A DNA stretch of 64,000 nt, from IMG/VR virus record IMGVR_UViG_3300019487_000017. The stretch is one strand, 5' to 3'. Positions 24,004-60,121 of this stretch are shown here, piece by piece (positions within the stretch are counted from its first letter, which is position 1; every line of letters begins with the position of its first letter). Made by a program: the position numbers and the translations under genes. The notes below the pieces were generated by a model. That model was not told the DNA's origin. It saw only the letters and a program-made list of their open reading frames with translations, and did not search any database. Source of the DNA: a virus.

Positions 24004-24780
24004 ATGTTACCAAAGTATGCTTTGATACTTATCCCGCTTAATAACGATTATTCAGATTTGTCCGGTAGAATTTACAAAGAAAATAATCTAATAGAAGCAA
24101 AAGAATACAAGAACAATGCTGATATTAGATATGGACTTTATGGCACACTCTGGGGAAAAACCACAACCAATAAATGGTTAAATCTTGATAAAAACGCTAC
24201 TTATGCAGTAGTAAGAATAGTATTAAATAATGATATTGTTTATTTGGATGAGCTTGAAAACCTGATTAAATTCAAATCAGGTATGGTTGTTAAGATTAGT
24301 GATCTTAATAATTGTGCTAAGTACATATCAGAAAATTGTCCTCCAGCAATCAAGGAATCTTTGGCTGGTTTGCATGTCCAATCAGAAACAGAAGACCTTG
24401 TTGTTAAAGGATTTCTTTCTTCTGCTATTTCTAAGCACGATAAGTCACACGCAGTTAATTTTGGAGACATGGGAGTAGCTGAAACACTGTGTGATGTGGC
24501 ACACGCTATTTCACTGGGTAAAAATGGTAAAGCTATTTCCCAGGGAATGGAAAGTTGTTCTTTTGCAGCTGGTAATAATGCTGAAATTATCAGTGGAAAA
24601 GAAGGTGTGTCCGTGGGAATAGGTATTAAAAGCATTGGTAAAGCTGGTGATAATGGTATGCTAATTTTAGCATATAATGATGGATACAGAAAAAGAGTGA
24701 AAGTCGGATATGTTGGGGAGAATATTGAATCTAATGTCATGTATAATGTTAATCCACAAGGAGAATTTGAGAAAGTTTAG
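24004..24780 (+). CDS. Phage protein with small-residue repeats and a C-terminal VGYVGE-I...Y motif
   Basis: GLYG-LWG N-terminus; G/A/S-rich stretch; KVGYVGENIESNVMY. Confidence 0.6.
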   Translation: MLPKYALILIPLNNDYSDLSGRIYKENNLIEAKEYKNNADIRYGLYGTLWGKTTTNKWLNLDKNATYAVVRIVLNNDIVYLDELENLIKFKSGMVVKISDLNNCAKYISENCPPAIKESLAGLHVQSETEDLVVKGFLSSAISKHDKSHAVNFGDMGVAETLCDVAHAISLGKNGKAISQGMESCSFAAGNNAEIISGKEGVSVGIGIKSIGKAGDNGMLILAYNDGYRKRVKVGYVGENIESNVMYNVNPQGEFEKV

Positions 24781-24831
24781 ATTCTCCTGATTACATGACA
24801 AATTTGAATTTCAGTTGAAAGGAAATTTGTC

Positions 24832-25296
24832 ATGAATAAGTCTGGTGGTTTAAAGGTATTTATTTCGTTAGCACTATTAGCAAGTGTAATAACTACCATT
24901 GTTTTCACTATTACTTCTGGTATTCCAGGATTTGTTGCTGGAATAATCACATCTGCCTTTTTTATCTTTGGGGCATCTGGAATCTTTTTTGGAAGAGGAT
25001 TAACTGGTGGATTAGGTGGTATTTTCGTTTGGTTTATAGGCGTAGTTATCTTATTGGTAACTATGTTTTTATGTGAAATGTATATCATTGATGGGGGGAG
25101 TAAGAAAGGTAAGGTTTACGGACCTGGCGGTGATTATTTTGCAGATAAAGTAATAGATACGTTAGGTATGGGAATGGATTGGATGTTTTCTTTTCTTTCA
25201 AAACCTAATGAAATTCCAAAATATACACCTTTGCTAGTGTTTGTATTCATCTTTATTTTTGTCATTATTGGAAAATTAAAGAATCGTAATTCTTAA
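24832..25296 (+). CDS. Membrane protein (about 4 TM helices)
   Basis: Multiple hydrophobic segments. Confidence 0.75.
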   Translation: MNKSGGLKVFISLALLASVITTIVFTITSGIPGFVAGIITSAFFIFGASGIFFGRGLTGGLGGIFVWFIGVVILLVTMFLCEMYIIDGGSKKGKVYGPGGDYFADKVIDTLGMGMDWMFSFLSKPNEIPKYTPLLVFVFIFIFVIIGKLKNRNS

Positions 25297-25346
25297 TTCT
25301 CCAGCTAAAACAGAATTTTCTGCAAGTAGAAAAGTAGTTTTCAACT

Positions 25347-25379
25347 AAAGACGGTCCTTTTATAGGGCTGTCTTTTTTT
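25347..25379 (+). terminator. Intrinsic terminator
   Basis: AAAGACGGTCC/GGGCTGTCTTT plus T-tract. Confidence 0.7.
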
Positions 25380-25443
25380 ATTATCCAGTTGTAAAGCATA
25401 CAGCAAAAATAAATATCGCTTTTATTATAAGGAGATATAAAGC

Positions 25444-26259
25444 ATGTCTAGTCTCGTTTTGAATTTGCCGGTTGTTGATGAAAAAGTTAATGGAGTAGTT
25501 TTATATGATGGTCCATCCCTTTTTGATGGAAAACGTATTGTAGTTATTGCAACTGGATTAGATCCGAATAAGTCTAAGAATGAAAAGACTGGGAAAATGG
25601 TCCAAACCTGGATTATGGTAGCTGGTACTCCTCCAGTTGAAGCTTTAGACAAAGGTAAAGATAGTTCGGTTTGTGGTAGTTGTAAACATCGTCATTTTCG
25701 TTCTTGCTATGTAAATCTTGGTATTGGCGGTCCTTATCAAGTTTATGAAGCATGGAAAAACAATAAATATCCTACTTTGGATATGAGTGATCCGCTTGCA
25801 ATGCTGGTTTTTAAAGATAAGCATGTGCGGTTGGGATCGTATGGAGATCCAGCGTGTGTCCCTATTGATATTTGGAACACTATTACGCACTGGTGTGCTG
25901 GACATACTGGTTACACTCATGCATGGAAACGTATTAGTACAGAATATCGTAAGTTTTGCATGGCATCATGCGATACTTTAGATGAAGTAAATCAAGCAAA
26001 GGCAAGGGGTTGGAAACCGTTTTATGTTCGGCAACCTGAAGACCCTATTCCTGATAAGTTTTTTACTTGTCCTGCCTCAAAGGAAGATGGATATCGTTTA
26101 AGTTGTCAGGAATGTATGGTATGTTCTGGTGGTAATTATAAGGTAGGTAAGGGAGTTCCTACGATTGTTGTTCATGGTCCATCTTGGAAGCGAAGTTTCT
26201 TCCTCCGGGGAATGAAACTTATGCGGAATAAGAAAAAATACGTTGGACAATTTAACTAA
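25444..26259 (+). CDS. Cys-rich conserved phage protein, possibly Fe-S binding (DUF7227/gp88-like)
   Basis: NEKTG-MVQTWI, CGSC...CY, RLGSYGDP, GYTH-W, CPAS...CQECMVC. Confidence 0.6.
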   Translation: MSSLVLNLPVVDEKVNGVVLYDGPSLFDGKRIVVIATGLDPNKSKNEKTGKMVQTWIMVAGTPPVEALDKGKDSSVCGSCKHRHFRSCYVNLGIGGPYQVYEAWKNNKYPTLDMSDPLAMLVFKDKHVRLGSYGDPACVPIDIWNTITHWCAGHTGYTHAWKRISTEYRKFCMASCDTLDEVNQAKARGWKPFYVRQPEDPIPDKFFTCPASKEDGYRLSCQECMVCSGGNYKVGKGVPTIVVHGPSWKRSFFLRGMKLMRNKKKYVGQFN

Positions 26260-26679
26260 GGATGAAACTATGAGAAAAGATGATGTTTATAATCGTTGTA
26301 GAGTAATTGAATTAGAACATATTTTACGTCTTGCTTTCAATGCGAATAATCTTACTGAAGATATCCGTAAGAAAATGGATATAGTGTTGAATAACGTTAA
26401 ATTGTTTGAATCATCTGAGCAATTATATTGGAGTGGAGAGATTTATTATCCTACTGGAAAAAATGGCAATCGTCTAAGTGATGGTTTAATGGGTAGGGAG
26501 TTTGCTTCAGAGAAAAATTCAGCAAATAGAGTTTGGTTATATCGTGATGGTACGGTTGCGCCTGTTTGAGAATATTCTCCAGGCAAATAGAAAATTTGAT
26601 TAGAAATGTTGTTCTTGAATCTTTTTGCTGGCTCTACCACTCAGGTTCAGCAAGTTCAAGAACTCATTCCCCATTTTTG

Positions 26680-26714
26680 ACCCCAGGTTATCCCCGCCTG
26701 GGGTTTTTTATTTT
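26680..26714 (+). terminator. Intrinsic terminator
   Basis: ACCCCAGG/CCTGGGGT plus T-tract. Confidence 0.75.
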
Positions 26715-26724
26715 ACGAGAAAAT

Positions 26725-27060
26725 ATGAAAAACACAGAAGCACACAAAAGAGCTATTCGTGCAGCAGGAAAAGCACTGTTTGATAATTTGCTACAACTAA
26801 GAAAGGAGTATGATTCAGAAACTCCTGGATGGTTAACTGGTGCTAATATTCTTGTTGATTTGCTGGTGAATAAAGAAGCTTGGGCAAATAGCAATGATTT
26901 TATTGCACTTGTTCAAACCGCTGTTTCTGATCTGGATAAGGCTTCCGTAAAGTATAAGGATTCACTCCAATACGATATTTTGCAGGATTTAAAAAAGCAT
27001 TTGGTAACATGGTTGAATGACAATAAAATTCCACTTACTTTTAATCCAACATCAAATTAA
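26725..27060 (+). CDS. Hypothetical protein
   Basis: Start re-assigned to the ATG at 26725, after the terminator. Confidence 0.6.
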   Translation: MKNTEAHKRAIRAAGKALFDNLLQLRKEYDSETPGWLTGANILVDLLVNKEAWANSNDFIALVQTAVSDLDKASVKYKDSLQYDILQDLKKHLVTWLNDNKIPLTFNPTSN

Positions 27061-27156
27061 AGATGTTGATAAGATTTTTAATTTTCGTAAGTATATTATT
27101 TGTAGAAGAGTACGCTGTGGATAACTCCTGGATAAATAAATCTTTGAGAAAAGAGC

Positions 27157-27184
27157 TTGCAATCTTTTCAATCTCTGATAAGAT
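27157..27184 (+). promoter_or_regulatory. Putative sigma70 promoter for the large ncRNA
   Basis: TTGCAA-N16-TAAGAT with an extended -10 TG. Confidence 0.55.
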
Positions 27185-27190
27185 ACTTGC

Positions 27191-27690
27191 ATAGTCGTCA
27201 TCGAGAGCAACAAAAACGTAACGTTGTTCAAGATAATGATTACGAGTGAAGTATCACAGAGAAGATCGAGAAATTACTTATCGAAAGATGAGGAAATAAA
27301 TCGGTTGGAGTGATGCGGACGCTGGGTAATAGTAGTCGTATGTTTGGAAACTAATTATGTGGTAGCAAGTTCCAACATTACAATTACAGCAGCTTTTTAC
27401 GCAAACTAAAAAGCGGTAGGTAGTTGGAATAAGGGACAGCCAAAACATAATAGCCTTGTAATCTCTGAATTAAACAGTCAGAGAACAATAGGTAGAAATG
27501 CCTTAGAGCCAGAATAAAGGTAACACTGAAAACTGGTGCTAAAACAAGGTAAATATAACGGCTAACGGAAACCTGAAAAGACTATTATCAGCAATTGATT
27601 CTCAAAACTCCTGAACCAATAAGGGAGTACATGAGACAGCAATATGAGCCAACTTGGTTGAAGGCTCATATGAAATCAATTACTTCACTC
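27191..27690 (+). ncRNA. Large ornate ncRNA (~500 nt), possibly ROOL-like
   Basis: No ORF; nested long-range helices 27244-53/27681-90 and 27321-33/27581-92; many hairpins; own promoter and terminator. Confidence 0.75.
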
Positions 27691-27703
27691 TATTTTAACT
27701 ATA

Positions 27704-27738
27704 AAAACACCCTGCCCTAAAAAGCAGGGTGTTTTCTT
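27704..27738 (+). terminator. Intrinsic terminator after the large ncRNA
   Basis: AAAACACCCTGC/GCAGGGTGTTTT. Confidence 0.8.
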
Positions 27739-28271
27739 GCGCTTCTCCTGAGATTTCACATTATTACAAGGATAAATATGAAAATTATTATTCGAACATA
27801 CCAAGGATTGATACATGACATTATCGCTGAATCTGATTGCGATGTTGTCGTTACTGAAATCGATGAAAAAGAACAAGTTGTAGAAACTTTATGGCGGAAA
27901 AATTTCCCCGCTAATAACCTAGCTACATCCTTACATGAAGCATTAACTCTTGAAACAAAGGAATAAATAATGAAGATGTACTATACTGAGACTCCTGATT
28001 ATAGAGAATCTCTTATGCTGGAATGTTCTAAAGAGCTTGCTTATAGAACTGGTGAAGGCGCTGGTAGTTGGCGCAATGGTTTGCCCGATTGTTTTCGTAA
28101 ACTTGCAGAACTTGCATGTATTGATACTGAATCTATTAATTGGTTAAGTGTAGTTGAAGGAATAGTTCATCGTTGGGCTATTCTTCAAATATCTGAAATG
28201 ACTTTTAAGCTTTAAAAATCATCTCCCGATAAAATTCTATCCAAATTATAAACATAAAAGGAGAATAATTT

Positions 28272-29654
28272 ATGGCGGTCAAAGTAAAAGGTGATAAAGT
28301 TAAGGAACCAACAAAGGCGCAACTAGATACCGCAGTTGCAAAAGAACGCCTTATTTGTGTAGATGTTGATGATAACAACTGTAAGTTTTGGCACGGATTT
28401 GCCTTAGCAAATGGTGACGGTTTCTGCGAATGGGGAAGAGTTGATAAAACGCGACAACATGAATATTACAATTTTGGCAATGTAAGTGATGCTCAAAATT
28501 GGCTTGAAAGTAAAACCCAGGAAAAATTGAATAAGCGTGGTAAGGCTTCTTACACTCGACAGAAGACAATCGATAATACTGGAACTGTCAATCGTACTTC
28601 TGTTGGTGGCGGTTCTGTTCGCTCTTCTGATTTAAAGAATATTGCAGCGCAACAGATTAAGGGTGATAGCGAGACAACAAAGCTTGTAACTTGGCTTGCA
28701 GAAGTCAATGTACATCAAATTACTAAGAATACTCAAATTACATATAACGTTCAAACTGGATCATTCAGTACGCCATTAGGTTTAGTTACTCCTGATGGTA
28801 TTACTGAGGCTCGTGATATTCTGAATGGCATTTGCGATTATGTTCAGAATAGGGATTGGAATAACGCAAAATATAAGAAACTATTAAGTGATTATTTGCG
28901 TATTATTCCGCAGAACGTAGGTATGGTTCGAGGTTGGCATGAGACTATTTTTGCTCCTGCCGATTCCTTGCAAAAGCAGAATGATATTCTTGATTCGTTG
29001 TCGGCGTCTTTACAGGCACCGTCTACAGGAAAAAAGTCATCTGCTGGAAACGTAACGGAAAGCGTTTTCAACGTTTCTCTCGAAACCGTTTCAGATCCAG
29101 CAATTATTTCTCGCATTCGAGCAAAATACAACAGCGAAAAGGGAAGTCATTACGACGTAAAGGACTTCGATGTAAGGAAAGTTTGGACTGTTCATATTAC
29201 AACAGTCAGAAGTGCTTTCCAAGGTGACGGTATTAAGGTAGGCGGTATGATGCAACTTTGGCATGGAACAAAGGCATCTAATGTTTTGTCTATCTTAAAG
29301 GGAGGATTGGTTATTCCTCCTGCCAGTGCATCGCACGTTTGTGGACGTATGTTTGGTAATGGATTGTATTTCTCTGACCAATCGACTAAGAGCATTCGTT
29401 ATGCTACAGGCGCTTGGACAGGCGGTGGGAATACAGAACGAGTATTTATGTTTATTGCTGATGTTGCAATGGGCAAATACTATACGCCGCAAGGTTATCA
29501 GAGTGGTTCATTCCGCGTACCGTCTGGCTATGACTCCTGTTTTGCTAAAGGCGGTAAGTCTGGGGTACAGAATAACGAAATGATTGTTTATCGCGTATCT
29601 CAGGCAGATTTGACTTATTTGGTTGAATTTGGACGTAACAAGACTGGATGGTAA
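28272..29654 (+). CDS. WGR-domain PARP-family ADP-ribosyltransferase
   Basis: EWGRV (WGR), helical middle domain, LWHGT, SILKGGL, GRMFGNGLYF, KS-RY, NNEMIVY (H-Y-E triad). Confidence 0.92.
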   Translation: MAVKVKGDKVKEPTKAQLDTAVAKERLICVDVDDNNCKFWHGFALANGDGFCEWGRVDKTRQHEYYNFGNVSDAQNWLESKTQEKLNKRGKASYTRQKTIDNTGTVNRTSVGGGSVRSSDLKNIAAQQIKGDSETTKLVTWLAEVNVHQITKNTQITYNVQTGSFSTPLGLVTPDGITEARDILNGICDYVQNRDWNNAKYKKLLSDYLRIIPQNVGMVRGWHETIFAPADSLQKQNDILDSLSASLQAPSTGKKSSAGNVTESVFNVSLETVSDPAIISRIRAKYNSEKGSHYDVKDFDVRKVWTVHITTVRSAFQGDGIKVGGMMQLWHGTKASNVLSILKGGLVIPPASASHVCGRMFGNGLYFSDQSTKSIRYATGAWTGGGNTERVFMFIADVAMGKYYTPQGYQSGSFRVPSGYDSCFAKGGKSGVQNNEMIVYRVSQADLTYLVEFGRNKTGW

Positions 29655-31118
29655 TACATAATTATTTGTAATATTTAACTCCGGGAAAGATAAGATGAAC
29701 TTCTTATTTGCGGGCAAGAGGTAAATACTATTATCTTGCTTATAATAGGTTGTCTCAGGATGCGACAGCATTTGAAGATTTCATTGAAAGACGTAAAGCA
29801 AACAAGGAGTCAACATGAGAGATACTTCTATGCGGGAAAAGAAATTTCAAGAAGCCCAAAATGACTTAAAATCTCTGTTTGACTTATGGGAGAAAGTAAA
29901 TGAAAGTATTACTTTTTTGCAAGGGGATTATGACAGAGAATTGATTAAAGAGCCAGAAGTTATTGTAAACGCTATGAGCGATTATGTAAATAACTATGGT
30001 TTTGAACCTCATAAATTTGTAGAACTAATGAGTAGGCAACATAGGAGCTTACAGCAATCTTTTACCAGACTTGTTCTTATGTGGCTCCTGCATCTGTCTC
30101 AATTGGAGGAAGGATATTACGACGGTCGTAATGAGGTTGCCGTAAATATCGCCAAAAAGATTATGAAGGGGCTGGATAAGCACGATGTCAATTTGCCTCT
30201 AATTTAATTTTCTCCTGTCCAAATAATCTGATAAGGAAGAATATCATGAAATTACTTTGGATTCACAATATCACAGTTCAGGTCATTGTTTCAGACGATG
30301 AAGTTGCTACTGAAGAAAAAGCAATTGAAACAGCCAGGACTGTAATAACAGATTTAAGATCGTATGTATCTAGGGCTTATGATTTGAAAGATGCAACTAT
30401 TGCAACTGACCCTAATGAGGTCAAAGAAGTTGAAATTCTTAAGGCGAGATAAATCATGCAGACACTTTGTCCTATTACTGATTGGCAAACATCCATTGTT
30501 GAGAAGGGTCCGTTTAAGGGCAATGAAACTAAGCAACGTTATGTTGCGGCTGCTGATAATTGGTGCTGGATTATCGGGTTACAGCGTAATAAAGAAGATG
30601 CAAATGTAGTTGGTGAAAAGTTTTATGGCAATATGAGACACTTTTTGCCTGCATTGTTTAAGCAAATCTCTCCTGTTGCACCAATTACAGTCGTTAAAGC
30701 ACTCTTGAATAGGATTGGGGTCAAGCAAGAAGTTCCAACAGAATTCACCAGCGAAGCAGAATGCGAGAAGTACGGCAAGAGTTTGGACGACTCATATGGC
30801 ACGAGCTATATGAGAGAGTACCCCCCTACTGTTATGAAGAGAATTTTTAAGTCTGAAGAAAAGGATGAGACATAAGGGGAATACAGGGAAGAGAATGGTG
30901 TGTATGGATTCTTTACTGGAAAATGATCTTAACAAAATATTCGCAGCAGACTGGACAGAGACTCAGTGGAAAGATTATTTAACTGATTTAGATAATCGTC
31001 TAAATGATACTAATAAACCTTTATTAGCCCGTGTAAGGGTTAATGATGCGCTTATTCTTTATCTCCGGCTCCAAAAGTAACTGCAAGACTCAAAAGAGAC
31101 ATTAATTTGGATTAAATC

Positions 31119-31697
31119 ATGTATAGAATTATACCTGGCGATGCAACTAACCCGCAACCTTTGAACAAAGATTCAGAAATCTGGATCCCACACGTTTGTA
31201 ATGATTTGGGATTATGGGGTAGCGGATTTGTAAATGCTATTACTGCACGTTGGGGAGAAAGTGCTAGGACTGCATATATTATGTGGTCTAAAGCATTTAA
31301 GAATACTTCTATCACTCTTTCTGCAACAGATACAGAAATAGTCGGTAATTCATATTTTGTCTTAGGTGGGCATCAAGCTTTAAGAGTTTTAAACTCTCCT
31401 GATAAGATTCATATCTACAATATGATTGCCCAACATGGAGTAAGAGGTGATGATTCTCTCCGTCCACCGATCAGGTATGCAGCATTAGCGGAGTCTATGG
31501 CGTCATTAACGCCACTGCTTAGATCTAACTCTGAAATTCATTGTCCAAAGTTTGGTTCGGACTTGGCTGGTGGCAAATGGGAAGTAATTGAAGCACTAAT
31601 TCATGAATTGTGGGTAGATGAAGGTTACAATGTAACCGTTTACGAATTTCAACCAAAAGTTTCTCCTGAAAATAAAGAAATGCCAAGTTTAGATTAA
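31119..31697 (+). CDS. Macrodomain ADP-ribosylhydrolase (TARG1/DarG-like clade)
   Basis: GDAT, HVCND-G-WGSGF, NMIAQ, HCPKFGSDLAGGKW-IE-LI. Confidence 0.88.
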   Translation: MYRIIPGDATNPQPLNKDSEIWIPHVCNDLGLWGSGFVNAITARWGESARTAYIMWSKAFKNTSITLSATDTEIVGNSYFVLGGHQALRVLNSPDKIHIYNMIAQHGVRGDDSLRPPIRYAALAESMASLTPLLRSNSEIHCPKFGSDLAGGKWEVIEALIHELWVDEGYNVTVYEFQPKVSPENKEMPSLD

Positions 31698-31721
31698 CCT
31701 CAAACAAAAGGAACATAACAT

Positions 31722-32405
31722 ATGTGTACGTCAGCAAATGCACTGCTTATTAGCGAAGTTATTGATGAAATGGTCAATGCAGGTAAGTGTTTTACTGCAT
31801 ATGATGTCACGAAAGAAGCAAAGACTCGTGGCGCAAATGAAAATCACTACCATATGAAAGGTAGTGTTCATTCTCGCTACAGTGATTTGCAGAATTTGGG
31901 ATATGACCGTAGCCTTGTTCAATCCCCAACCGGCAATACTTTTCTTTATCATCCTACTGGCGCTGATATCCAAGCCGAAATCGACCGTATCAACGGTAAT
32001 GCTTCAGCATCTACTGTTCTCCCGTCTCCTAATGCCCCTCAGTCTTCTAATGTAGCTACGCTGTCTAGCAATACGACAACTGTTACCACAGCAAAAACCA
32101 AGAAGAACCAGCCTGTAGATGCAGAAGGACGATTGCCTATTTATGCACCGTTTATCAGCGCATTAGGGTTGAAGACTGGGGATATGGTTGCGGTTTATTC
32201 ACAAGATGGTGTATTGACTGATACTTATCTTTCAGTTGAAAAGTATGATGCTTCTGCAACGTCTACGCCTGTTGCAACTTATACAGTCAACCTAGATGGT
32301 CGAATTAGAATTGGTGAAGAAATTCTTTCAACTTTTCTTCCTAGTTCTAATGGTGTCTATGTTGTCTCAATTGAGAAAAACGAGATTCAAGTTAAATCCA
32401 ATTAA
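31722..32405 (+). CDS. Putative DNA-binding protein with a duplicated AbrB/MraZ-like motif
   Basis: VDAEGRLPI and VNLDGRIRI; S/T-rich linker. Confidence 0.55.
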   Translation: MCTSANALLISEVIDEMVNAGKCFTAYDVTKEAKTRGANENHYHMKGSVHSRYSDLQNLGYDRSLVQSPTGNTFLYHPTGADIQAEIDRINGNASASTVLPSPNAPQSSNVATLSSNTTTVTTAKTKKNQPVDAEGRLPIYAPFISALGLKTGDMVAVYSQDGVLTDTYLSVEKYDASATSTPVATYTVNLDGRIRIGEEILSTFLPSSNGVYVVSIEKNEIQVKSN

Positions 32406-32430
32406 AGAAGTAAAATTGTAAAAATCTCCT

Positions 32431-32475
32431 GCCACTGTGTTTAAGCGAAACTAAACACAGTGGCTTTCTTCTTTT
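32431..32475 (+). terminator. Intrinsic terminator
   Basis: GCCACTGTGTTTA/TAAACACAGTGGC plus T-rich tail. Confidence 0.75.
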
Positions 32476-32794
32476 ATAAGGAAAAACTATGCAATCGCGT
32501 TATAATAAGCGAGTGGCAGAAATTAAGAAGTTGCTTCGTGATAATAACATAGATTTCAAATATAAATCATCTGCAAACAATGATATTGAAGACGATACTG
32601 CATCATTAACTGATGGAAGCGATATTCATTTGCAAATCGACTCTAGAAATGGTGATTGTATTGCTGTAAATCGTTGTTATAATTTAAATACCCCAAAGTT
32701 TTACATGCGTTCTTGGGATATTAATGATAATAGCGAAATTCTTTCTGCAATTGCTCAAGCACGATTAGCAACAACGTAAATAAGGAATAACATT

Positions 32795-33421
32795 ATGGGT
32801 TGGCTTTTTACGGATGGTATTCGGCGTTCTCAACTTATCATGGATCGTGTCCGACCTTGGAAAAATGCTATTAGTTTTAACACCGAAACTAATAGCATTG
32901 GCTATTTAAATAAGGATGATACTCCTGAATATGAAATTCATACAACCTTCCCAAAGTATTGTTATAGGGGCGGGATTCGGGGTGGTTGCCTTTGGAAGAT
33001 TACAGAACAAAAAGTTATTCGTATAGCAACTCAAGAAGTTGTTCATACTGAGCAATTCATTGCATTGGATTTGTTGCGATACTCTAATTATGAGAATAGG
33101 AAGAGTTGGGGATATAAGGATATGACAGAACATAGCGGACCATACTATTATTCTTGTCCTCTATCCTATTTGAAAGAAGTTCCTTGTCCAGAAAATAAAT
33201 ATGCTAAAGATTGGAGAGAAAAAGTTCTCCAGTTAGCAGAAGAAAAGAAAAATGTCTATAAGCCTCATTTAGGCGAAAAGGTTGAGCTTATAGCAGGATG
33301 CAAAATCCGTTGGGTACAGATTCGTTCTGCAAATAGAAAATTGCTTGGCGTTGGTCCTGATGGAGTCTTGTATCGTGTTAAAAAGACACATATTGTTGGT
33401 CCTTGGAAAGAGATAGCATAG
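32795..33421 (+). CDS. DUF6927-like mobile-element protein
   Basis: MGWLF, WGYKDMTE-SGPYYY-CP, A-DWR. Confidence 0.65.
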   Translation: MGWLFTDGIRRSQLIMDRVRPWKNAISFNTETNSIGYLNKDDTPEYEIHTTFPKYCYRGGIRGGCLWKITEQKVIRIATQEVVHTEQFIALDLLRYSNYENRKSWGYKDMTEHSGPYYYSCPLSYLKEVPCPENKYAKDWREKVLQLAEEKKNVYKPHLGEKVELIAGCKIRWVQIRSANRKLLGVGPDGVLYRVKKTHIVGPWKEIA

Positions 33422-35132: not shown

Positions 35133-35199
35133 CTCCTGAAATTTTTGCTGACGAAAAGAATTGATGTAATAAACAAATCTCTTACACAAGGAGTTACTT

Positions 35200-38242: not shown

Positions 38243-38579
38243 GTAACATGGCTAAGAAAATTCCTGTTTGCGGTAATCCTGATTGCGCTTGTTCTACTGG
38301 AATTCATGATGGTTTAACGTTTGGATCAGGGGAACTTGATTCTAATGGTTATTGGGAATTCCCTTGTAGAGTTTGTGCTGAAGCATGGGATAAACTTTTG
38401 CCAGAGAGAAAACAAAAAGAAATAGATGAATATAAGGCTAAACATCCTAATGCTACTCCAGAAGAAATTGCAGAACATATGAGATGGCATGCAGATTATT
38501 TACAGCCTGCTTGGCCTTATGCCAAGAAAGAAAAACTTCAAAACACATAAGTTTATCAGAACAAAATATAATAGCATTA

Positions 38580-38612: not shown

Positions 38613-38660
38613 CTCCTGCAAAAACAACTGAATAGAAAGACAATTGAAAGGAAATTAGAT

Positions 38661-49482: not shown

Positions 49483-49565
49483 GTCCCAGTGGCGGAACGG
49501 CAGACGCTTCGGACTTAAAATCCGATGATCGAAAGATCGTGAGGGTTCGATTCCCTCCTGGGGCA
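49483..49565 (+). tRNA. tRNA-Leu(TAA)
   Basis: TCGGA-CTTAAAA-TCCGA; variable arm GATC-GAAA-GATC. Confidence 0.95.
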
Positions 49566-51416: not shown

Positions 51417-51576
51417 GCCCCTGTAGCTCAGCGGACTAGAGCGTTCACAAGCTTCAGATATGCTTTTTTGTAGTTGGAAGCGCTTCTTGCTACAAAATAG
51501 ATAGTTTCTAGGGCTATCTAAAATAGTGTTAATGAATCTAAGTGAAAGGTCGTTGGTTCGAATCCTTCCAGGGGCT
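51417..51576 (+). tRNA. tRNA-Arg(TCT)-like gene interrupted by a ~85-nt insertion in the anticodon loop
   Basis: GCCCCTG/CAGGGGC acceptor, D-arm with A20, TTCAC...TCTAA-GTGAA, T-loop TTCGAAT. Confidence 0.7.
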
Positions 51577-51587
51577 TTTTGATATAC

Positions 51588-51762
51588 GGGTGGTTGGTGA
51601 GCCGAAAGGTTCGCTGCAAGGCTTCTGAAAAGTTCTCAAAACGACTGTAGAACTATTAAGTCTCCAGGATTAGAATCGACTACGAAAGTAGAGACGCCTA
51701 ATATTTGAAAGACAATAGGATGTAACAGAGACGCTTGATTACAAAGTAAGAGCCAACCGCCC
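51588..51762 (+). ncRNA. Candidate structured RNA
   Basis: GGGTGGTTGG/CCAACCGCCC closing helix; two GAAA tetraloop hairpins; AGTTCT/AGAACT. Confidence 0.55.
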
Positions 51763-51790
51763 AAACGTACAACAAAGAAAGGTTTCTACA

Positions 51791-51994
51791 ATGGCAGCAA
51801 ATGTTATTAAGGGTTTGAAAGATGCTCTGCGAGTAGCAAAGAATAGTTCTGAAATTGCTGATTTGCTTGCAAGAGGCGAGACATATAAGGATGCCTCTAC
51901 CGAAACCCGTCGAGATTGGCAACGTATTGCTGAAAAGCGTACTGTTGAATTGGATACACCAAAGACAAAGAAATCTCCAGACAAAAAGAAGTAA
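51791..51994 (+). CDS. Small basic hypothetical protein
   Basis: 67-aa ORF. Confidence 0.6.
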   Translation: MAANVIKGLKDALRVAKNSSEIADLLARGETYKDASTETRRDWQRIAEKRTVELDTPKTKKSPDKKK

Positions 51995-52030
51995 ACATAA
52001 GTAACGTCTATTAGATAAGAAGGAGAAACA

Positions 52031-52201
52031 ATGGCTTCAAAGATGATGGATCATGACTGCGTAAATGTACAGCAAGATGCCATTCATGGTCGTATGCGAA
52101 GGGTTATGAATAAGACCATGAAAGATAATGAATGGCGCTGTACCGCTTGCGGAAAGACAGTGACAAAGGGCGGTCCCCCGCCTAAGAAGTCAGCAAAGTA
52201 A
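52031..52201 (+). CDS. Small Cys/His protein (HDC...CTACG), not in the ORF track
   Basis: AAGGAG RBS; 56 aa. Confidence 0.6.
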   Translation: MASKMMDHDCVNVQQDAIHGRMRRVMNKTMKDNEWRCTACGKTVTKGGPPPKKSAK

Positions 52202-52596
52202 CTTAAATTGCCTATATTAGCTTTGCCTAAGACATAACCTGTAGGCTAAGGCAAGGGTCATCAATTCAGGGTTTAGGCTGTCTACAGAGCTCCTGAACCT
52301 GAGAATTGCTAATTCGGTAATATAAGTTAGCACTTGTTTAATGATTACAGAAAAGGAATGTAAAATGAAACTAAATTGAAGAATCTTGTTGTGTACCTAA
52401 TAACTATTTTCTCCGCAAGAGAATAGTTATGCAACAAGAAAAAATGCGGAATGTTTATTTAATCGAGAGCTTCGGGTTAAATAAACAAAAAGAAAACTAT
52501 GAAGCAATCCCGATGATAGACTGAGGTAGTAACTAATCGGGAAAAGCTAGCAAACATATCCAGCAAAGGTCGCTCCTTTGTTGGATATGTTATTTT

Positions 52597-52690
52597 GGAG
52601 CGGTACGCAAATTGGAAAAGCGGACTATATAGCGATATACTAGTTAAGTTGTTATATAGTTGTTTGCAAGTTCGACTCCTGCCCGCTCCG
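52597..52690 (+). ncRNA. tRNA-like RNA whose anticodon arm is a 13-bp hairpin
   Basis: GGAGCGG/CCGCTCC acceptor, D-arm, TTCGACT T-loop; ACTATATAGCGAT/GTTGTTATATAGT stem. Confidence 0.7.
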
Positions 52691-53851
52691 CTTCCCATTA
52701 AACAAAATCATGACAAGACGAGAATTTAACCACATCCTGACCCAGGAACGAAATACGCTGCTTGAAAGAATCGCTAATGAAGGTTTTTATTATCGCAAAG
52801 AAAAGCGATATGACGCCACAACCTGGGATATTAACAACGGTTATTGTGATGAATTTGCACAATCCGTTTTTGATAGATTAGGTGGCGAAACCGATAAAAT
52901 GTACGGTATTTGGCTACATGATATCGGTGAATTTCAAAAACAAATGGAAGGATGCGGAGAACACTATGTAATTTTCTACAACCAAAAATACTATGATGCT
53001 GAATGTATTGGGGGTGTAGATAATCCGTTATTTCTCCCGTTTTACCTTAACAAATATAAAACCCGCGAACAAGTAATAAAGGAGCGTCAAAATGATTCAA
53101 ATCGATAACTATGATTCTCAGTTTTTCCGCTATGCCAAGGGGTGGTTTGTTACGTCAGACAATGTAATTGAAGATCTACGCCAAATTTGCGCTTGGCGAT
53201 GGATGATGAATGTTACAGATATTGCTGACTCAACAATCCTGGAAGTACTCCTGATTGTTTTGAATAAAGCAAATCTGTTACAAGAATTGTCACGTACAAG
53301 GAATATCTTGACAATCGTTATGGGCGATCCTTATGGAAAACCCTTTGTAGGAATGCCGCAACGTTCTGTGTATGAACGAACGATTGATATTATTCTTGAT
53401 ATCTTTCGGCATTCTCGTGCCAGCGAAGTCTCTATCACAACTCCTGATCCAAAAACTGGATTGCAATTAACTGAAAATGCTAAACAGCAAATTGCAACCA
53501 GCGGAGCATAACTATGGAACGTAACTGGCTCTCAATTGGTAAAGAAGTTGTTGATCAAATTGGACAGGACAAAATCCTACACGCTATTAGTAACATCCAA
53601 TTTAGCAGCGATAGGAAGAAACAATATAGTTTTACAGAAGGATACGCACTGAGAGGCATTATTGATAATTATTTTCATCAAAATGTCTTGTCAATTGGTA
53701 TCGGTTATGATGTTGCCCCGTATTCTTTGCTTGCTATTGAAGCAAGTTATGCAAACGGCACAAGTAAAACGTATTTTGTTGAAATCAATGATGTTGTAAC
53801 TCCTGTTGTCAGCGATTTCTTTCCAAAATGCTGAAGAAAGGACAAAACAAA

Positions 53852-54187
53852 ATGGATATGAAGGCATTTTTGAAAGAAGTAGTTTTGTTGACTAGCGATT
53901 CTGGATTGAGCCACGATTCTCGTGTTTTTGCACTCGATGAACTGTTGAAATTTAATTCTGTTCAACCTAATGGGATTACGGCGGTTGTTAATAACAATGA
54001 GTACATAATTCCTTATCCGAATTATATTACAATCCGCGAGCTCCTGCTACGAGATAGGCTAATCCAAGCTATCAAGGAATTCAGGACAGTTACAGGCTTG
54101 GGCCTGAAGGAAAGCAAGGACTGGGTTGAAAATTTACGAGACAAGGAAAATCTGCGTATTATCCCTGACGACAGACGAACTTACTAA
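53852..54187 (+). CDS. Protein with a ribosomal bL12 (L7/L12) C-terminal-like motif
   Basis: IQAIKEFRTVTGLGLKESKDWVE. Confidence 0.75.
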   Translation: MDMKAFLKEVVLLTSDSGLSHDSRVFALDELLKFNSVQPNGITAVVNNNEYIIPYPNYITIRELLLRDRLIQAIKEFRTVTGLGLKESKDWVENLRDKENLRIIPDDRRTY

Positions 54188-54194
54188 TCCTCAC

Positions 54195-54305
54195 GGCGGC
54201 TGCTCCCCGCCAATCCCCTGTTTGTAACGGTCGGCTCCCCGTTATAAACACAATTAAGCATAGCGCTATCGTAGTTGCTCCCTACGGTAGCGCTATGCTT
54301 TTTTT
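54195..54305 (+). ncRNA. Triple-hairpin sRNA candidate with GCTCC loops; the last hairpin is a terminator
   Basis: Three stems with loops CTGCTCC, TCGGCTCC and TTGCTCC, then a T-tract. Confidence 0.65.
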
Positions 54306-54572
54306 CTCCCGATAAAACCCCTTTCATGGTATATCCACTATGAACGATAATACATGCACACCGTACAAAAACCGCTATGTTACCCTAAAGGGAGAACCTT
54401 TTCCTATCGGTAAACTCGGTTTGATACTCCAGACAAGGGGAGTCCTGGATTTCAAATATGAAACGGATGATACTGTTTATTATGAGGTTAATCCTAATCA
54501 TTCAGAAGAAAAAGTATTATCCTTGATATCCAGTTTGGCAGCGGATCTAACTAACATTTAGTAGGAGCATAA

Positions 54573-54800
54573 ATGAGTAGAGCCAATTTGCCAGATGTTG
54601 GCAATAAAGAAAACCCTATTCCATTTGTGAAACGTGGTTCACTTGTGGGATATCGTGAAAATGGTTTTTGGTATTTGAAAAACCCTGAAATAAAAAGCGG
54701 TTTCTTCTCCGGCTGGATTCGTCAAACCGACCCATATTCGGCAGTCGAGTTTGATAACGAATATTTAGAACGGAGCAAAAATGAGCCAGACACGCAATGA
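54573..54800 (+). CDS. Hypothetical protein, paralog of the C-terminal half of 54781-55185
   Basis: PDVG--NP...YR--G-WY...DNEY shared. Confidence 0.7.
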   Translation: MSRANLPDVGNKENPIPFVKRGSLVGYRENGFWYLKNPEIKSGFFSGWIRQTDPYSAVEFDNEYLERSKNEPDTQ

Positions 54801-55185
54801 AATCGGTCAGCAAATTATAATCGAGGGGCAATACGAGGAATTCTACCAAAAGGGTGATGCAAGGGGTAATGGTAAGAATTCATACATGCAAGGTTGGCAC
54901 AAAAATCGCCGCCTTGAGATCCAGAGGGTCTATGATCGTCTGGTTGAAGAATGTATTCAACGGAATTTAGACCGTAGAAACATTCCAGATGTTGGTTCGG
55001 AAACGAATCCCGTATTGTTTCATCCTGTTTGTCCAATTGATTTGTCATTTTTCTATTATCGGAAAGACGGTAATTGGTATCGGAAAAGTGCATATCAAAC
55101 CAACTCCAGTTGGCTTTGTATCACCTATGGTCCTGCATTAGAGGACTTGGATAACGAATACTCAAGACAACGGAGCATAGCATGA
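54781..55185 (+). CDS. Hypothetical protein, paralog of 54573-54800
   Basis: Same shared motif. Confidence 0.7.
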   Translation: MSQTRNEIGQQIIIEGQYEEFYQKGDARGNGKNSYMQGWHKNRRLEIQRVYDRLVEECIQRNLDRRNIPDVGSETNPVLFHPVCPIDLSFFYYRKDGNWYRKSAYQTNSSWLCITYGPALEDLDNEYSRQRSIA

Positions 55186-55959
55186 GCCAGCGTATTCTTA
55201 AGAACTATCTGTTTTATTACAATGGTTCATTCGTCACGGAACAATTCGGATACGATGCAAACCATGCTAGGCGTATCATACGATATAATATTGATTCTGT
55301 TCCTGGCATAGTTTGCGGTAATCATTTACCTTGTGACTTCAGAAGAAAAGTGTATTTTTCTGATGCAAAAGAAATGGTTATGCCTGATGCTGAAGGCGTA
55401 GAACGCCGCACCAGAGAATGCGTTGATAAACTCAATGCAGAGAAAATCGAACGAGCAAAGCATTGTCGCAATGAAGCGGCTCTCCTGAGAGTATTCGGTT
55501 TTGTACAATGCTGCCTGGATCTTTAATTGGAGCAAAAAATGGAATTACCAGAATACCTACCTGATGAAACAAGTGGAGACTATCGTGTGCGGAATAATCT
55601 CCCCTATGTTTACACTCCATTCTTTCCATATCCATCATATGGAAGGCACACAGATGTTTTGACAGGACCAGGCACTGGACAAATTGACTGGCAAAAAGAA
55701 CTCCAGGATAAATTCCCCACTGTTATCCTATATCCATACGAATCATTGCAAGTCAGTCTCTCAAATGAATCTTTATTTATTTTATTCCAAAATGAAACAC
55801 AGGTTCACGAACTGGCACGACAATGGATAGTGCAACACTGTCTTGCGTATGGTAAAAATCATGCAGAAAAAGTGACGCCTACGGTAGATGAACTCCTGAG
55901 CTATTATCTTAGCGCAAAAAACATATTCAGAATCGATCATCCTTGAGCTTGGAGCAATA

Positions 55960-56568
55960 ATGTCAATCTATGCAATCGGTGATATTCATAGAAATATCCC
56001 TACTTATGAAAAGATTTGTAAGAATCTTCATAAAGTAGATGAGAATGTCATTACGATTCAGGTTGGCGATGTTGGCATTGGCTTTGAAGGTGTTGAAATG
56101 CCTAGCCTTCATGCTAATGATTATTTTATTGCGGGCAATCATGATGATGCTGAAAAATGCAAGTTACACCCTAATTGTTTAGGCGATTACGGTGTTAAAG
56201 AATTTGACGGGAAAACAGTCTTCTACCTCCGGGGCGCATACAGTACAGACAGAGATATGCGAATCCCTGGTATTAGTTGGTGGGAATATGAAGAACTGAA
56301 CTATGAACAACTTTGTAATGCTATCAAATTATATGATGAAAGCCGTCCAGACATTGTAATTACTCACGATTGTCCAACAATTGCGAGAACTAAAATGTTT
56401 GGTTATAGGCACAGCGGACGAACAGTGCCAGCATTGCAAAATATGTTTGAAATCCATCAACCTCCTGTTTGGGCGTTTGGACATCATCATCGTCAACTGC
56501 ATACGAGCATTTACGGGACTTATTTTTATTGCATTGGCGAAATGCAGAATAAAAAGATTTCCCCTTAA
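55960..56568 (+). CDS. Calcineurin-like metallophosphoesterase
   Basis: GDIH, GDVG, GNHD, ITHDCP, FGHHH. Confidence 0.92.
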   Translation: MSIYAIGDIHRNIPTYEKICKNLHKVDENVITIQVGDVGIGFEGVEMPSLHANDYFIAGNHDDAEKCKLHPNCLGDYGVKEFDGKTVFYLRGAYSTDRDMRIPGISWWEYEELNYEQLCNAIKLYDESRPDIVITHDCPTIARTKMFGYRHSGRTVPALQNMFEIHQPPVWAFGHHHRQLHTSIYGTYFYCIGEMQNKKISP

Positions 56569-58320
56569 AGGAGCATACTAATGACAGAGGCGATTGTTTT
56601 TGTTCGTAAACGCGGTGCGATTGGTATCTTTGAACGTCAAACCTTCCCTATCAAGGAAATTTTGCCTGGCGAAAATATTTGTCAAGCATTCATTCGTCAA
56701 TACGGTGAGCAATGGGAACTTGGTCGCTTTTGTCAATTGTCGATGAAAGACAACCCATATTTCCAGGCTTATCAAGCCGAATTGAAAGGGTAAAATATGA
56801 AATTGTGGAGCGTCAACGCGAAATTAGGAACGATGCGAAAGGTTGTTGATTGGAGCGTTTACCCTAAGCCAACAAATGTTGGCGATGATTATCATTATGT
56901 ATTGATTCAATCTGACAATCGTATTTGTAGGATTGATTTGAATACTAAGAAGGGAATTTTAAGCGCTCATTGCCCGAATGGTGCTTATCATTATCACCTC
57001 CTGCAAAATACAACCGAAGTTGATATTCCACAGGACTTGATGGATCAAATCCTTCAAGTAAGACCGAAAAGCGGCGATAGTATGGTTGTCAATGGAACAA
57101 CTGTCATGCGTATAGGATAAGGAAATAACAATGTTTTCCCCTAAAACGTTTTCGGCTGGGGCATTTACTTTGCTGGGTATAATCTGGGGCAAGAGCAATT
57201 GGATTAACGTTTTTATTAAGGCAGGATTCTTTGGAATGGCTGTCTGGGGTGTTTATATCATCCTACATAACTAGCTCCTGAATACCAGAAAAGCAAAAGA
57301 GGGTATATGAGTCAACATACCATTACCATCTCTGAACAACAATTCTATCGAGAGGTTGTTGAATTTCGTAAAATTATGTGCAGCAAAAAGTATTGGAATA
57401 ATGGAGAACCTATTCCCATACTTGAAAAAGCCTTTCAAACCCTCACCTCCTGCTATTTTGCCTGTACCAACAGTCAAAAAGTAGAACCTGTCTATCAAGC
57501 AACTGTAAATGAATTTAGCAGACGACAAATAATGCTAAGTTTGAAACAGCATTAAGAAAATTACAAGCCTCCTGATTTTTTCGCGCTCCAAAAATAAACA
57601 TGAAAGGAGCAAAATCATGTTTGAAGATGATGAATTTGACCAGTCTTCACCAGATGAACCAAAAACCGGGCTACTAAGTAAAATTGTCTTTTATCCACAT
57701 GATATGTACACCGCAGATTATGTAATCGGGTATATCATTGGCGCAAATGAACATCATTGCGATATTCTGGTAGACCACGATTTCCGAGTTATTCGCGGTG
57801 TTCCTATCCATAAAGTCCAACGGATAAAAGTATGAACGGTAAACCGGAACATTGGAAACAGCAAAATGCTATTGACCAATTTACAGTATTACGTTTTGCG
57901 CTTGATGGTCATTTAATCAATTTTGAAATGAACATCATTGATAAAAAGACTTTCATCGAAAAAGCACAAACGTTAATTGATGAAATGCACCTTTTAGACC
58001 CTTATCTAAAAGGTAAAAAGTGGTAAATCTCCCAACCCCAAAAAGAAAGATACAATAATGAGTCAACCCTACGTTAATAACGGGCCTGTCACAACGTATC
58101 GTCAACTTAGGGATGCGATCAACCTAATGAATGATGAACAGATGGATTCAAACATAACTGTTCAAGAAGCGCAAGAAGATGATTTAGATGAGTTTTATCC
58201 AGCAGAACTCCGAATTATTAGGGAAACTGATGTGCTGGATGAAAATCATCCAGTTATCTATATCCCGTTGTAACCTCCTGATTAACAACACAAAACAAAT
58301 AAAAACAAAGGAGCAAAACA

Positions 58321-58533
58321 ATGGCATACACCGAAACGAATTTCAAGACGAAAAAGGCACTCAAAGAAGCTGTCGCAAAGGGCGAAGAAGTCCGATGCTT
58401 CCAACCAGGACTTGGACCTGATCTCTCCAATTTCTCCGGCAGAGTCTCACTCGAAGGACCACACTTCCCCAAACCGCATACTTGGTATGCAAGCGCGACA
58501 CTCGAAAATGGCAAGGTTGTAAAGGTTTCGTAA
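58321..58533 (+). CDS. Small conserved phage protein
   Basis: KTKKALKEAV...GPHFPKPHTWYA; AAGGAG RBS. Confidence 0.7.
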   Translation: MAYTETNFKTKKALKEAVAKGEEVRCFQPGLGPDLSNFSGRVSLEGPHFPKPHTWYASATLENGKVVKVS

Positions 58534-59737
58534 CATGATAGAGCAAGCCGTAATAGAGCGAAGGATTAAAGAAAAAGCACGAGAATTGGCACTTGAACAT
58601 TATCATAATCCAACGTCACAGGATTTACTCCTGATTGAAATCATCCTTCGTCATGGTTGGATAATGGCAGTCAACGAATACAACAGCGAAACAATCGAAT
58701 TGGAGCAAAATCATGAAGAAATGGAATCGTTACAACCAGGCAACCCGTTGACCCAGGATATGTATCATATGGCAACAAACATCGGCTCAAATGTTTGTAT
58801 ACTGTCCGCAAAACGGCAAGCGTATCAAGGTCCACCTCCAGGACTAATTATTTCTTCAAATAACAACGTCTAACAAACGGAGTAAGTTATATGAAGAATC
58901 GCGGGATATACGGAACAAACGACGGTTCATACAATCGCGGCGGAAAAGATGGCGGAGCAGCCATTGCTACCGAACGATTTGCAGATGCCGCTGTCGATGA
59001 TGGCGAAAATATCAAAACCTTCCAGCGAATGCTGAAAGAAAAAGACTGGGCAAACCTTGAAAAATTCTCCCAGAAACTTCGACAACAAGGTTATGCTCAA
59101 TTCCGCGTCGAAAGCATGATGCGAAGCGCAACAGTAGGAGTAAGATTCTAAGCCTCCTGACCTTGCCTTAAACAAAAACACCAGCATGATGAATACAACG
59201 TTACAAACAGCGTTTCTTGATTACTTCAACAATTATCTGACGGTCGAAAAGTATGCGGAGCATAATCAACTTACAGTTGAACAAGCCCAAAAACTGATCG
59301 ACCTGGGGCGAGAGGTTCACGAAGATATTGTGAAATTGCACAAAGAAATTGCTGCAATTCCAAAAATATAGTCTCCTGAACCCACGACAGTCTCAATGAA
59401 GGTTGTTGCCAATGGGGGCAACAAAACAATGGAGCCAGTCATGAGCCTTACTGTTGCGGACTATATCGAAATCAACGAACGTCGCGCCCAACTCGAAGCG
59501 GCAATGGAAGCCGAATGCGACCATCTTGTATCAACCCAAACACGAGTGCGTAGGGAATGCGGTTCGCCCCTCCTGAACTCCAAGGGGTTTGGACATCGTA
59601 CCATCGGCGCAAAGCAACATGGCAAAGTAGCGATGCCAGTTCGGGGCAGCGGATATGGACGCTACGATGCCGAACGCCTATGGCGGCGACAGACTGCCGC
59701 AGTTTAAGCCTGACACTTTACAATTGAATAGCAAGAC

Positions 59738-59770
59738 AACCTCTCCTGAGAAGGGAGAGGTTTTTTATTT
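59738..59770 (+). terminator. Terminator ending the long + strand cluster
   Basis: AACCTCTCC/GGAGAGGTT plus T-tract. Confidence 0.75.
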
Positions 59771-60121
59771 TCTATGAAAGGATCTTTTATTCAGATGGAA
59801 TAGATCTTTCTCTCCTGAATAGAGCAGTACCCCAATTAAGGGATTCCTTAAATGCATACCCCACTACCCCTCGGCGGGTTTTTATAAATAACCCTTGGAG
59901 TCCCAAAAAGGTACACCGCCGTGACGGGGGCCTTCCCCCAACGTGATTCTTTCCTATAAAGTAACGTCCCTAAAAATCATAAAGATCTATAATATGGGTT
60001 CCCTAAAAGGATACCCCTTTTTGTGTAAAAATATATGCGCAGGAAAACGACCCTTAAAAAAGACCCCCTATGTTTTAAAATGTCTAAAAAAGGATACCCT
60101 TTTCCAGAAGCCATATATACG

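Follow-up and report, generated by a model that had tools for sequence, protein, structure and literature searches.

The stretch of DNA analysed here, hereafter the window, is a 64-kb segment of a 233,620-bp jumbo-phage contig from a cave metagenome (IMG/VR record IMGVR_UViG_3300019487_000017), and its subject is a short oriented word, CTCCNG, that recurs through a long block of small genes. The window carries approximately 150 mostly small genes, which lie on the + strand up to 59.7 kb and mostly on the − strand beyond 60.1 kb, together with 17 tRNA calls and one doubtful transfer-messenger RNA call. Named genes include a PARP gene (28272..29654, +), a sigma-70-family factor (22835..23668, +), and a DUF1559 prepilin-type gene. 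Nucleotide searches of cultured phages returned short PARP matches only. The named relatives of the sigma factor are from Phycisphaerae and other Planctomycetota, with the closest proteins in Phycisphaerae; hence, the host is likely a Phycisphaerae bacterium. One DNA run mapped onto 46–64 kb showed no break at 60 kb, with contig depths of 14.4 and 12.3 (a contig depth is not a copy number).

CTCCNG occurs 161 times on the + strand and 15 times on the − strand, and 153 of the + copies fall within 10.7–59.9 kb, forming a zone of sense-strand copies over the tRNA and small-gene region (10761..59817, +). A preliminary description, drawn from the sequence letters, had reported the word as CTCCWG, with CTCCGG or CTCCCG at times. 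CTCCWG is strongly skewed (127 copies on the + strand, 12 on the −), and all 13 positions listed for it carry the motif, one of them at 57275 instead of 57276. The approximately 20 copies estimated by eye in 53–59.9 kb correspond to 22 CTCCWG counted, against 1.8 expected from base composition, and the near absence of the reverse form in that interval is borne out by 27 forward and 0 reverse copies of CTCCNG. Nonetheless, the signal is larger than described: CTCCCG (19/2) and CTCCGG (15/1) are strand-skewed in the same manner as CTCCTG (80/6) and CTCCAG (47/6), which identifies the true motif as CTCCNG. Variants substituted at positions 1–4 or 6 show no enrichment; any base is tolerated at the fifth position, whereas the final G is needed. 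The flanks at 1–10 kb and beyond 60 kb had been called sparse, and the start of the zone, first given as 24.8 kb, lies near 10.7 kb. Forward and reverse counts are 8/2 at 1–10.7 kb, 29/10 at 10.7–24 kb, 124/1 at 24–59.9 kb, and 0/2 beyond 59.9 kb, with forward density rising from 2.2 per kb at 10.7–24 kb to 3.5 per kb at 24–59.9 kb.

The left edge of the zone is an AT-rich non-coding gap (10678..11259) with forward copies at 10761, 10832, ~10936, and 11192 and a reverse copy at 11109–11114. Its right edge is an intrinsic-terminator-like hairpin (59738..59770, +), which holds a copy at 59743 in its stem; the 3' stems of several tRNA genes carry copies in the same way. Between 24341 and 59817 (+), the copies form a core lattice of 124 forward and 1 reverse, in which gaps are mostly 100–500 bp. 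The PARP gene illustrates the arrangement, with one copy (28223) lying 49 nt upstream and four inside the gene (28789, 28954, 29317, and 29534). Past the right edge, a minus-strand copy (60869..60874, −) lies 78 nt upstream of a minus-strand gene starting at 60796. As a separate observation, tRNA-like T-arm remnants at 52676 and 59570, which are not called as tRNAs, also carry the motif.

In 114 genes of the window (38,979 bp), CTCCWG was found 79 times, compared with 18.2±3.8 in a protein-preserving synonymous shuffle (maximum 35 in 1,000) and 12.4±3.5 in a codon-order shuffle, with 32, 34, and 13 copies in the three reading frames. For CTCCNG, the corresponding figure is 102 against 24.7±4.4 with proteins held fixed, and the frames contribute 45, 39, and 18. 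CNG directly follows 45 of the 84 CTC codons in these genes. Moreover, density is higher outside genes (4.8 per kb) than inside them (2.6 per kb), and 30 of the 51 genes at 42–60 kb have a copy 20–90 nt upstream, where 12.5 would be expected. The enrichment thus persists under a codon-aware null model, where the preliminary description had allowed that it might vanish. The reverse form is specifically lost: 1 copy was found in 89 genes at 24–60 kb against 15.5±3.3 expected, and control words are only slightly low there (ANGGAG 20 versus 29.1, GNGGAG 14 versus 16.5, and TNGGAG 19 versus 22.5).

Spacing is also far from random. At 24–60 kb, the mean interval is 288 bp with a coefficient of variation of 0.485, compared with 0.987±0.086 expected. 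When the 45 near-start copies were kept fixed and the other 79 were re-placed randomly, gaps below 100 bp numbered 3 in the real sequence against 29.7±4.0, and the largest gap was 813 bp against 1466±300. The 3 short gaps are close to a neutral background, which we estimate at ~8, so that redundancy can explain the lower limit and active repulsion is not required. Among 78 stretches, mostly from unrelated phages found through the protein encoded at 25444 (the set includes the window and 7 stretches from a related fragment, G001), no other showed a comparable CTCCNG skew.

Close relatives were collected as 80 metagenome loci found through PARP. The two closest, L132 (71% identity) and L133 (69% identity, 60% GC), carry 13 forward and 0 reverse copies in 2.9 kb and 14 forward and 0 reverse in 3.7 kb, respectively, with 11 versus 2.9 and 10 versus 4.6 against codon nulls. 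Other biased loci are L131 (8/0), L144 (4/0), L145 (5/1), and L154 (6/1). Within PARP itself, the window has 4 copies, L132 has 6, and L133 has 4; one site is common to all three, two are shared by pairs, and the rest differ, while the remaining 25 PARP sequences hold 0–2 copies each. By sequence comparison, then, density and not site position is what is kept, and individual sites turn over.

Distant relatives carry one-strand motif zones in the same gene block. In four of them, G006 (461 kb, complete), G010 (488 kb), G011 (548 kb), and G012 (298 kb), zones of 32–60 kb start at the homologue of a 331-residue protein that the window encodes at 11733; those of G010, G011, and G012 measure 50, 32, and 42 kb. 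Their boxes are longer and differ in sequence. G006 uses TTGCCAGAGTG-N14-TTATAG, and 79 of its 87 forward copies (at most 1 mismatch) lie within 355–445 kb. G010 uses CCACATA, and G011 and G012 share TCCAGAC; in G012, several full box copies also occur within the 45 kb before the 11733 homologue. Long boxes in further loci are CTCCAGAGGTG (L139), CTCCAGAGGTC (L135), TCACCAGACAC (L143), TTCCAGACAAGT (L125, which is G012), and TTCCAGGTAAGT (L138). The boxes of L139 and L135 open with the window's own hexamer, CTCCAGAGGT, a CCAG core is common to L143, L138, and L183, and a TAT-type second element is present in G006, L139, L135, and L143. G001, an 82-kb fragment, is syntenic with the window, and its word YCCCTG increases up to 65.4 kb and then ends; these copies, including those within genes, are followed by A/T at +19..21 and G at +23. 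The relatives form a gradient. Copies deep in genes number 1 of 77 in G006, 2 of 47 in G012, 3 of 31 in G011, 12 of 61 in G010, 45 of 123 in G001, and 78 of 150 in the window, while box density rises from 1.0–1.3 per kb among the long boxes to 2.8 in G001 and 3.1 in the window. A shorter box goes with more in-gene placement, at four times the expectation from codon use. Taken with the null models, these comparisons establish the CTCCNG signal as real, selected, and clade-wide.

The long boxes display what appears, from sequence, to be promoter geometry. Counting offsets from the first C of the CC in the box, an ATG that opens an open reading frame (ORF) stands at +32 in 12 of 77 G006 copies and 19 of 61 G010 copies, and at +31 in 9 of 31 G011 copies and 9 of 60 G012 copies. 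A pyrimidine-purine step ends at that base in 73/77, 54/61, 24/31, and 40/47 copies of G006, G010, G011, and G012, respectively, and in G010 a GAAAGG begins at +32 in another 12 of the 61 copies. Leaderless ATGs, ribosome sites, and an initiator would thus share a fixed distance of 31–32 nt. No −10 consensus follows the box in G010, where only a C near +24 is seen. The geometry of the relatives, especially G010, therefore implies, as far as sequence goes, that in this clade the position of a start can be set by a box near −30 with no −10 element.

By the pattern of these relatives, an initiator in the window should end at +31 or +32, and two offsets were allowed beforehand. There, a pyrimidine-purine step at +30/+31 follows 51 of 150 copies against 35.0 expected (p 0.002, rank 1 of 54 offsets; ~0.004 for two offsets). 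In deep in-gene copies, the step is present in 26 of 74 against a frame-aware 18.2 (z 2.1). Near-start copies place start codons at +29..33 in 10 of 51 cases against 3.5 (p 0.002), at +34..39 in 1 of 51 against 4.2 (p 0.07), and at +43..47 in 11 against 3.5, the last being a range picked post hoc. Offset +31 is occupied by an ATG in 7 cases and by the first base of a ribosome site in 10. An intergenic copy at 24784..24789 (+) has its predicted start site at 24817, which is the first base of a GAAAGG ribosome site for the gene at 24832. Another at 59154..59159 (+) lies 32 nt before the ATG at 59186 with no ribosome site upstream of that codon, a leaderless-type geometry. The window thus appears to repeat the geometry of its relatives, with support that is real but modest. 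Helical phasing of the motif-to-ATG distance was also considered and dropped; its p of ~0.005 at 10.5–11 bp was equalled at 15–16 bp.

Sigma-70 two-part promoters, with a TTGACA-like −35 and a TATAAT-like −10 separated by 16–18 bp, are not enriched in this part of the window (50 consensus matches at 44–64 kb versus 60.2±7.7 in shuffles), and CTCCNG differs from such a promoter in having no fixed second element after it. Approximately 42,000 pattern-offset tests together with stability profiles found none in the window, apart from a weak A-rich patch near starts. Nearly all genes of the motif zone face one way, which limits any comparison of strand with gene direction. In the few cases that do test it, polarity appears to follow transcription: G006 has one full minus-strand promoter element 61 nt before a 486-codon minus-strand ORF, and the minus-strand region of the window at 60–64 kb holds 2 sense and 0 antisense copies.

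Considering this evidence, we propose that CTCCNG is a shortened form of the clade's upstream promoter box, with transcription starting ~33 bases downstream and without a −10 element. We assign this reading as a whole a probability of roughly 0.6. An oriented signal read by a phage protein had been among the earlier suggestions and stands as such; a promoter, to which the relatives point, was absent from that list. The near-start copies of the window are probably promoters. For the in-gene copies, the odds fall slightly short of even that they too are bound and start transcription, bringing polymerase onto the block at ~300-bp intervals, with close copies redundant and reverse copies removed as antisense. 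The gene content suggests that the block would be expressed early.

In the proposed mechanism, host polymerase would first make the 11733 protein, which would bind the box at approximately −33..−28 and work with host RNA polymerase to start transcription ~33 bases on. With five fixed bases only, the box could be written into synonymous codons. Each extra forward site in the 49-kb same-direction block would add polymerase downstream or draw polymerase away from the host, whereas a second site within ~100 bp, or one closer than a polymerase footprint, would add little. A reverse site would cost antisense RNA and would hence be purged. In its most far-reaching form, a five-base box with no −10 element would alone set position and direction and be read by a new winged-helix protein (11733, in its long acidic-tailed form). 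Written into synonymous codons and tRNA stems at ~3 per kb along 50 kb and purged from the opposite strand, the copies would make up a lattice at which polymerase loads, out-competing the host for the enzyme or driving DNA entry; this full version is rather doubtful.

The candidate reader, encoded at 11733..12728 (+), is a 331-residue clade-specific protein with a predicted winged-helix core (~72–212), a basic patch, and an acidic tail. Its homologue in G006, G010, G011, and G012 is followed by a RecA/DnaB-like ATPase gene, which the window carries at 12847..13599 (+). The family has 144 members in two size classes, and 22 of the 113 aligned members are long, like that of the window. Homologues are present in the window, G006, G010, G011, and G012, that is, in 5 of the 6 motif-zone genomes searched, and were not found in zone-free G013 (complete, 177 kb) or in the 150 of 595 kb covered of LR756511.1. 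The structural model has a mean predicted local distance difference test (pLDDT) score of 79 and a predicted template modelling (pTM) score of 0.69, and residues 72–212 align to winged-helix domains with top rows at Z 4.2–5.9, including the OmpR/PhoB and AfsR activators. Searches against solved sequences, Foldseek libraries, and a protein atlas returned nothing significant, and a scan of species genomes found no copy. Back-to-back inverted boxes with a 92–93 bp period precede the 11733 homologue in G006 (368.25–368.46 kb), G011, and G012, and the G011 array has, read by eye, a TTGACA-N17-TATGAT between its inverted boxes. This arrangement suggests a host-transcribed and self-regulating activator gene; the inverted pairs could be an autoregulatory operator or a replication origin. 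G010 also shows inverted box pairs of 92–93 bp period, ~1.2 kb before its 11733 homologue.

Since the zone tracks the 11733 family better than the alternatives, this protein fits the role of reader better than 31722 or the sigma factor, and we tentatively name it as the candidate. The protein at 31722..32405 (+), a winged helix joined to an AbrB/MraZ-like barrel, belongs to a large unnamed phage family of 1,141 representatives. It had been put forward earlier as a motif binder; however, homologues occur in G013 and in the 150 kb of LR756511.1, both zone-free, which leads us to reject it as sole reader and to keep it as a weaker candidate. The sigma factor, also suggested, is an unlikely reader: the recognition helix in its region 4.2 matches host proteins, G006 has no close orthologue, and G013 has a homologue and no zone. 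A coiled-coil, basic, HARE-HTH-like protein resembling Planctomycete proteins (20841..21503, +) is a weak candidate binder, with a feature score of 0.87–0.90 that serves as a lead only.

Several observations weigh against the promoter reading. The homology of the five-base word to the long boxes appears to rest on position and a CCWG core, and CCACATA in G010 shares CCA only. Window copies, intergenic or in-gene, are followed by no −10 element, AT-rich patch, or low-stability patch. The +30 signal is not reproduced by 50 copies pooled from six close relatives (9 at +30, 15 at +31, and 17 at +32), loci that were picked after their counts were known, and the in-gene initiator of G001 is borderline (12 of 33 versus 7.5, p 0.054). 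In 7 of 51 near-start copies, a Shine-Dalgarno-like run begins at +16..+22, ahead of where transcription is predicted to start. At 11–24 kb, the reverse form shows no depletion (5 versus 5.0), and several PARP relatives at 53–57% identity are without clear bias (L141 3/1, L147 4/4, L149 4/5, and L151 2/1). As for the reader, the Z-scores of 11733 are in a common-fold range that does not indicate function, Foldseek gave nothing at E ≤ 0.001, and the 82-kb G001 fragment has a zone and no 11733 match. The window also lacks an inverted-box array directly before 11733, having instead the five copies of the 10.7–11.2 kb gap.

Among other explanations, the one that survives best keeps the near-start copies as promoters and assigns the in-gene copies to the loading of an antitermination or anti-silencing factor, or to coverage of the block by a DNA-binding protein of the phage, either of which would allow long transcripts to be completed. 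The upper bound on gaps (813 versus 1466±300), the weak initiator signal and missing melting region of in-gene copies, and the retention of density in PARP while sites move are all consistent with such a role. Yet the in-gene copies of G001 keep a −10-like element (A/T at +19..21 from the motif start in 40, 39, and 35 of 43), and in those of the window the predicted initiator offset comes out highest for YRW (19 of 74 versus 10.8), leaving this explanation unlikely.

Somewhat harder to sustain is a directional DNA-tracking signal, either Chi/KOPS-like or a place where a motor drawing in the first 50 kb to enter the cell would load again; such a signal might be unrelated to transcription starts or co-opted from a promoter box. 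Chi and KOPS are short, over-represented words that occur in one orientation, also inside genes, with the reverse avoided. CTCCNG shares the over-representation, the single strand, and the purged reverse form (124/1 at 24–59.9 kb). Its even spacing also fits, as does a density that climbs until it breaks off sharply at 59.8 kb, a pattern repeated in G001 and G006, and a five-base word lacking a second element resembles such signals. Against this, the motif is confined to one gene block, and no mirror arm lies past the right edge in the window (0/2 across the 60-kb boundary), G001, or G006, although a linear genome end might conceal such an arm. A Chi/KOPS-like or modification site, as proposed in the preliminary description, does not predict the constant spacing to start codons and initiators that is clear in relatives and weak in the window, and the minus-strand full element of G006 heads a minus-strand gene. 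For the in-gene copies, such a site could still apply.

An RNA element, namely an anti-Shine-Dalgarno hairpin partner or an RNase site on transcripts, has a slim chance. The copies invariably occupy the sense strand and frequently follow closely on a stop codon, and GGAG precedes the start in 24 of 51 genes with a near copy versus 16 of 63. However, CTCCNG is not complementary to the downstream ribosome site. The perfect pairing words CTCCTT, CTCCTA, and CTCCTC are rare (5, 6, and 1, versus 77 CTCCTG), the last G is required with the fifth base free, among 51 near-start copies none is matched by its full complement ahead of the start codon, deep in-gene sites make up half of the total, and leaderless genes in relatives place the box upstream of the RNA start. 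The anti-Shine-Dalgarno pairing raised earlier is thus not upheld. Slimmer still is the chance that CTCCNG is a site of phage DNA modification, or a non-palindromic target of a methylation or restriction system (Type III, Type ISP, or BREX-like) whose uniform orientation would protect against head-to-head cutting. The specific absence of the reverse form at 24–60 kb fits, and CNGGAG is shaped like asymmetric six-base sites; avoidance, however, does not account for 4–5-fold enrichment, even spacing, a single zone, pre-gene placement, or the two-part versions in relatives. A by-product of codon or dipeptide usage has next to no chance: frame 1 (xCT-CCN-G) does supply most of the null expectation, but the excess holds with proteins fixed (79 versus 18.2±3.8) and in all three frames, is denser outside genes, and is kept at 60% GC.

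Early promoters of phiKZ are AT-rich and intergenic. As in that phage, a short conserved motif stands on the sense strand before small early genes; in phiKZ, the promoters are few (28 early promoters per genome; PMC13282480) and depend on a virion RNA polymerase. An enzyme of this kind was not detected in G006, where 70 proteins or pieces (69 of 89 large ones and the sigma factor) gave no RNA-polymerase Pfam match and 522 ORFs held no full catalytic motif, with DFDGD present in one 1,761-residue protein. In jumbo phages without their own RNA polymerase, sigma homologues act at phage-specific promoters (PMC13282480). The present system resembles these in its sigma homologue, its phage-specific promoter sequence, and the lack of a polymerase match among the 70 G006 proteins. 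It differs in that the distribution of the zone matches a winged-helix family more closely than the sigma gene, and the one-box in-gene form is not described in the sections of that report at hand.

The closest parallel is offered by the nearly 60 middle promoters of T4, which carry a MotA box centred at −30 in place of a −35 element and have a stringent need for a sigma-70 −10 element 12±1 bp downstream (PMC2988021). The likeness lies in a predicted box position near −30, strong by sequence in G006, G010, G011, and G012 and modest in the window. It extends to the proposed pairing of a phage activator with host RNA polymerase over tRNA and prereplicative genes. The missing −10 in window copies and in G010 means that the element is not a member of this class, and five fixed bases with ~150 copies in 49 kb, half of them inside genes, are also unlike T4. 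No MotA or AsiA match was found in a PHROGs scan of 27 window proteins, or among the fold matches listed for 11733 and 31722, within the 64 of 234 kb covered. Repeated early promoters are in themselves ordinary; what stands out is a proposed box that lacks a −10, is reduced to five bases, and keeps even spacing within genes. Literature searches found no description of this element, with most subscription journals and supplements outside their coverage.

Other features were noted in the window and its relatives. PD-(D/E)XK endonuclease genes at 15614–16024 and 18837–19268 are inserted among the tRNA genes of the window. Low GC skew and high AT skew mark window positions 1–10700 and 52000–60000 despite + genes, and the same drop in skew appears in G001 and G006, both left of the zone and at its right-hand limit. 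A multi-copy small-gene family whose products start MC(L/M)x(I/L) lies just left of the zone in both the window (1403–1966 and 4912–5517) and G001 (12.6–21 kb). G001 also has a second one-strand hexamer, CACCGA, at 20–56 kb, evenly at ~1 per 2 kb (21 forward and 3 reverse over the contig), and ~14 tandem genes at 69.5–77.4 kb (L011) whose products start MNWY(K/R), many then continuing xIKxALP. In G010, a second oriented motif, AAGATGGGTGC, occurs at 162–213 kb (L217–L220) with 36 forward and 0 reverse copies. A CCACATA box follows 22 of these at a variable distance of 13–66 nt, and two immediately precede the 11733 homologue; the motif is possibly the site of a second regulator. In L174, a PARP-bearing contig of 525 kb, a long element that does not resemble the box of this clade, GGTACAGGCTCAAGAAAAACTTGAGC..TGTGAC, recurs ~29 times and contains a hairpin.

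DNA opening by bacterial RNA polymerase ordinarily depends on a −10 element. Were five upstream bases sufficient here, the protein that reads them would have to open or position DNA by new means, and G010 would be the cleaner case in which to see this. If the in-gene copies prove inert or otherwise used, the finding would be an unusual early promoter of an uncultured phage clade. The element also shows a second code that coding sequence maintains through density and not through position. Moreover, the clade offers a natural series that runs from the 11-base, two-part intergenic promoters of G006 to the five-base in-gene box of the window, along which the sequence of the candidate factor can be compared with the box of each phage.

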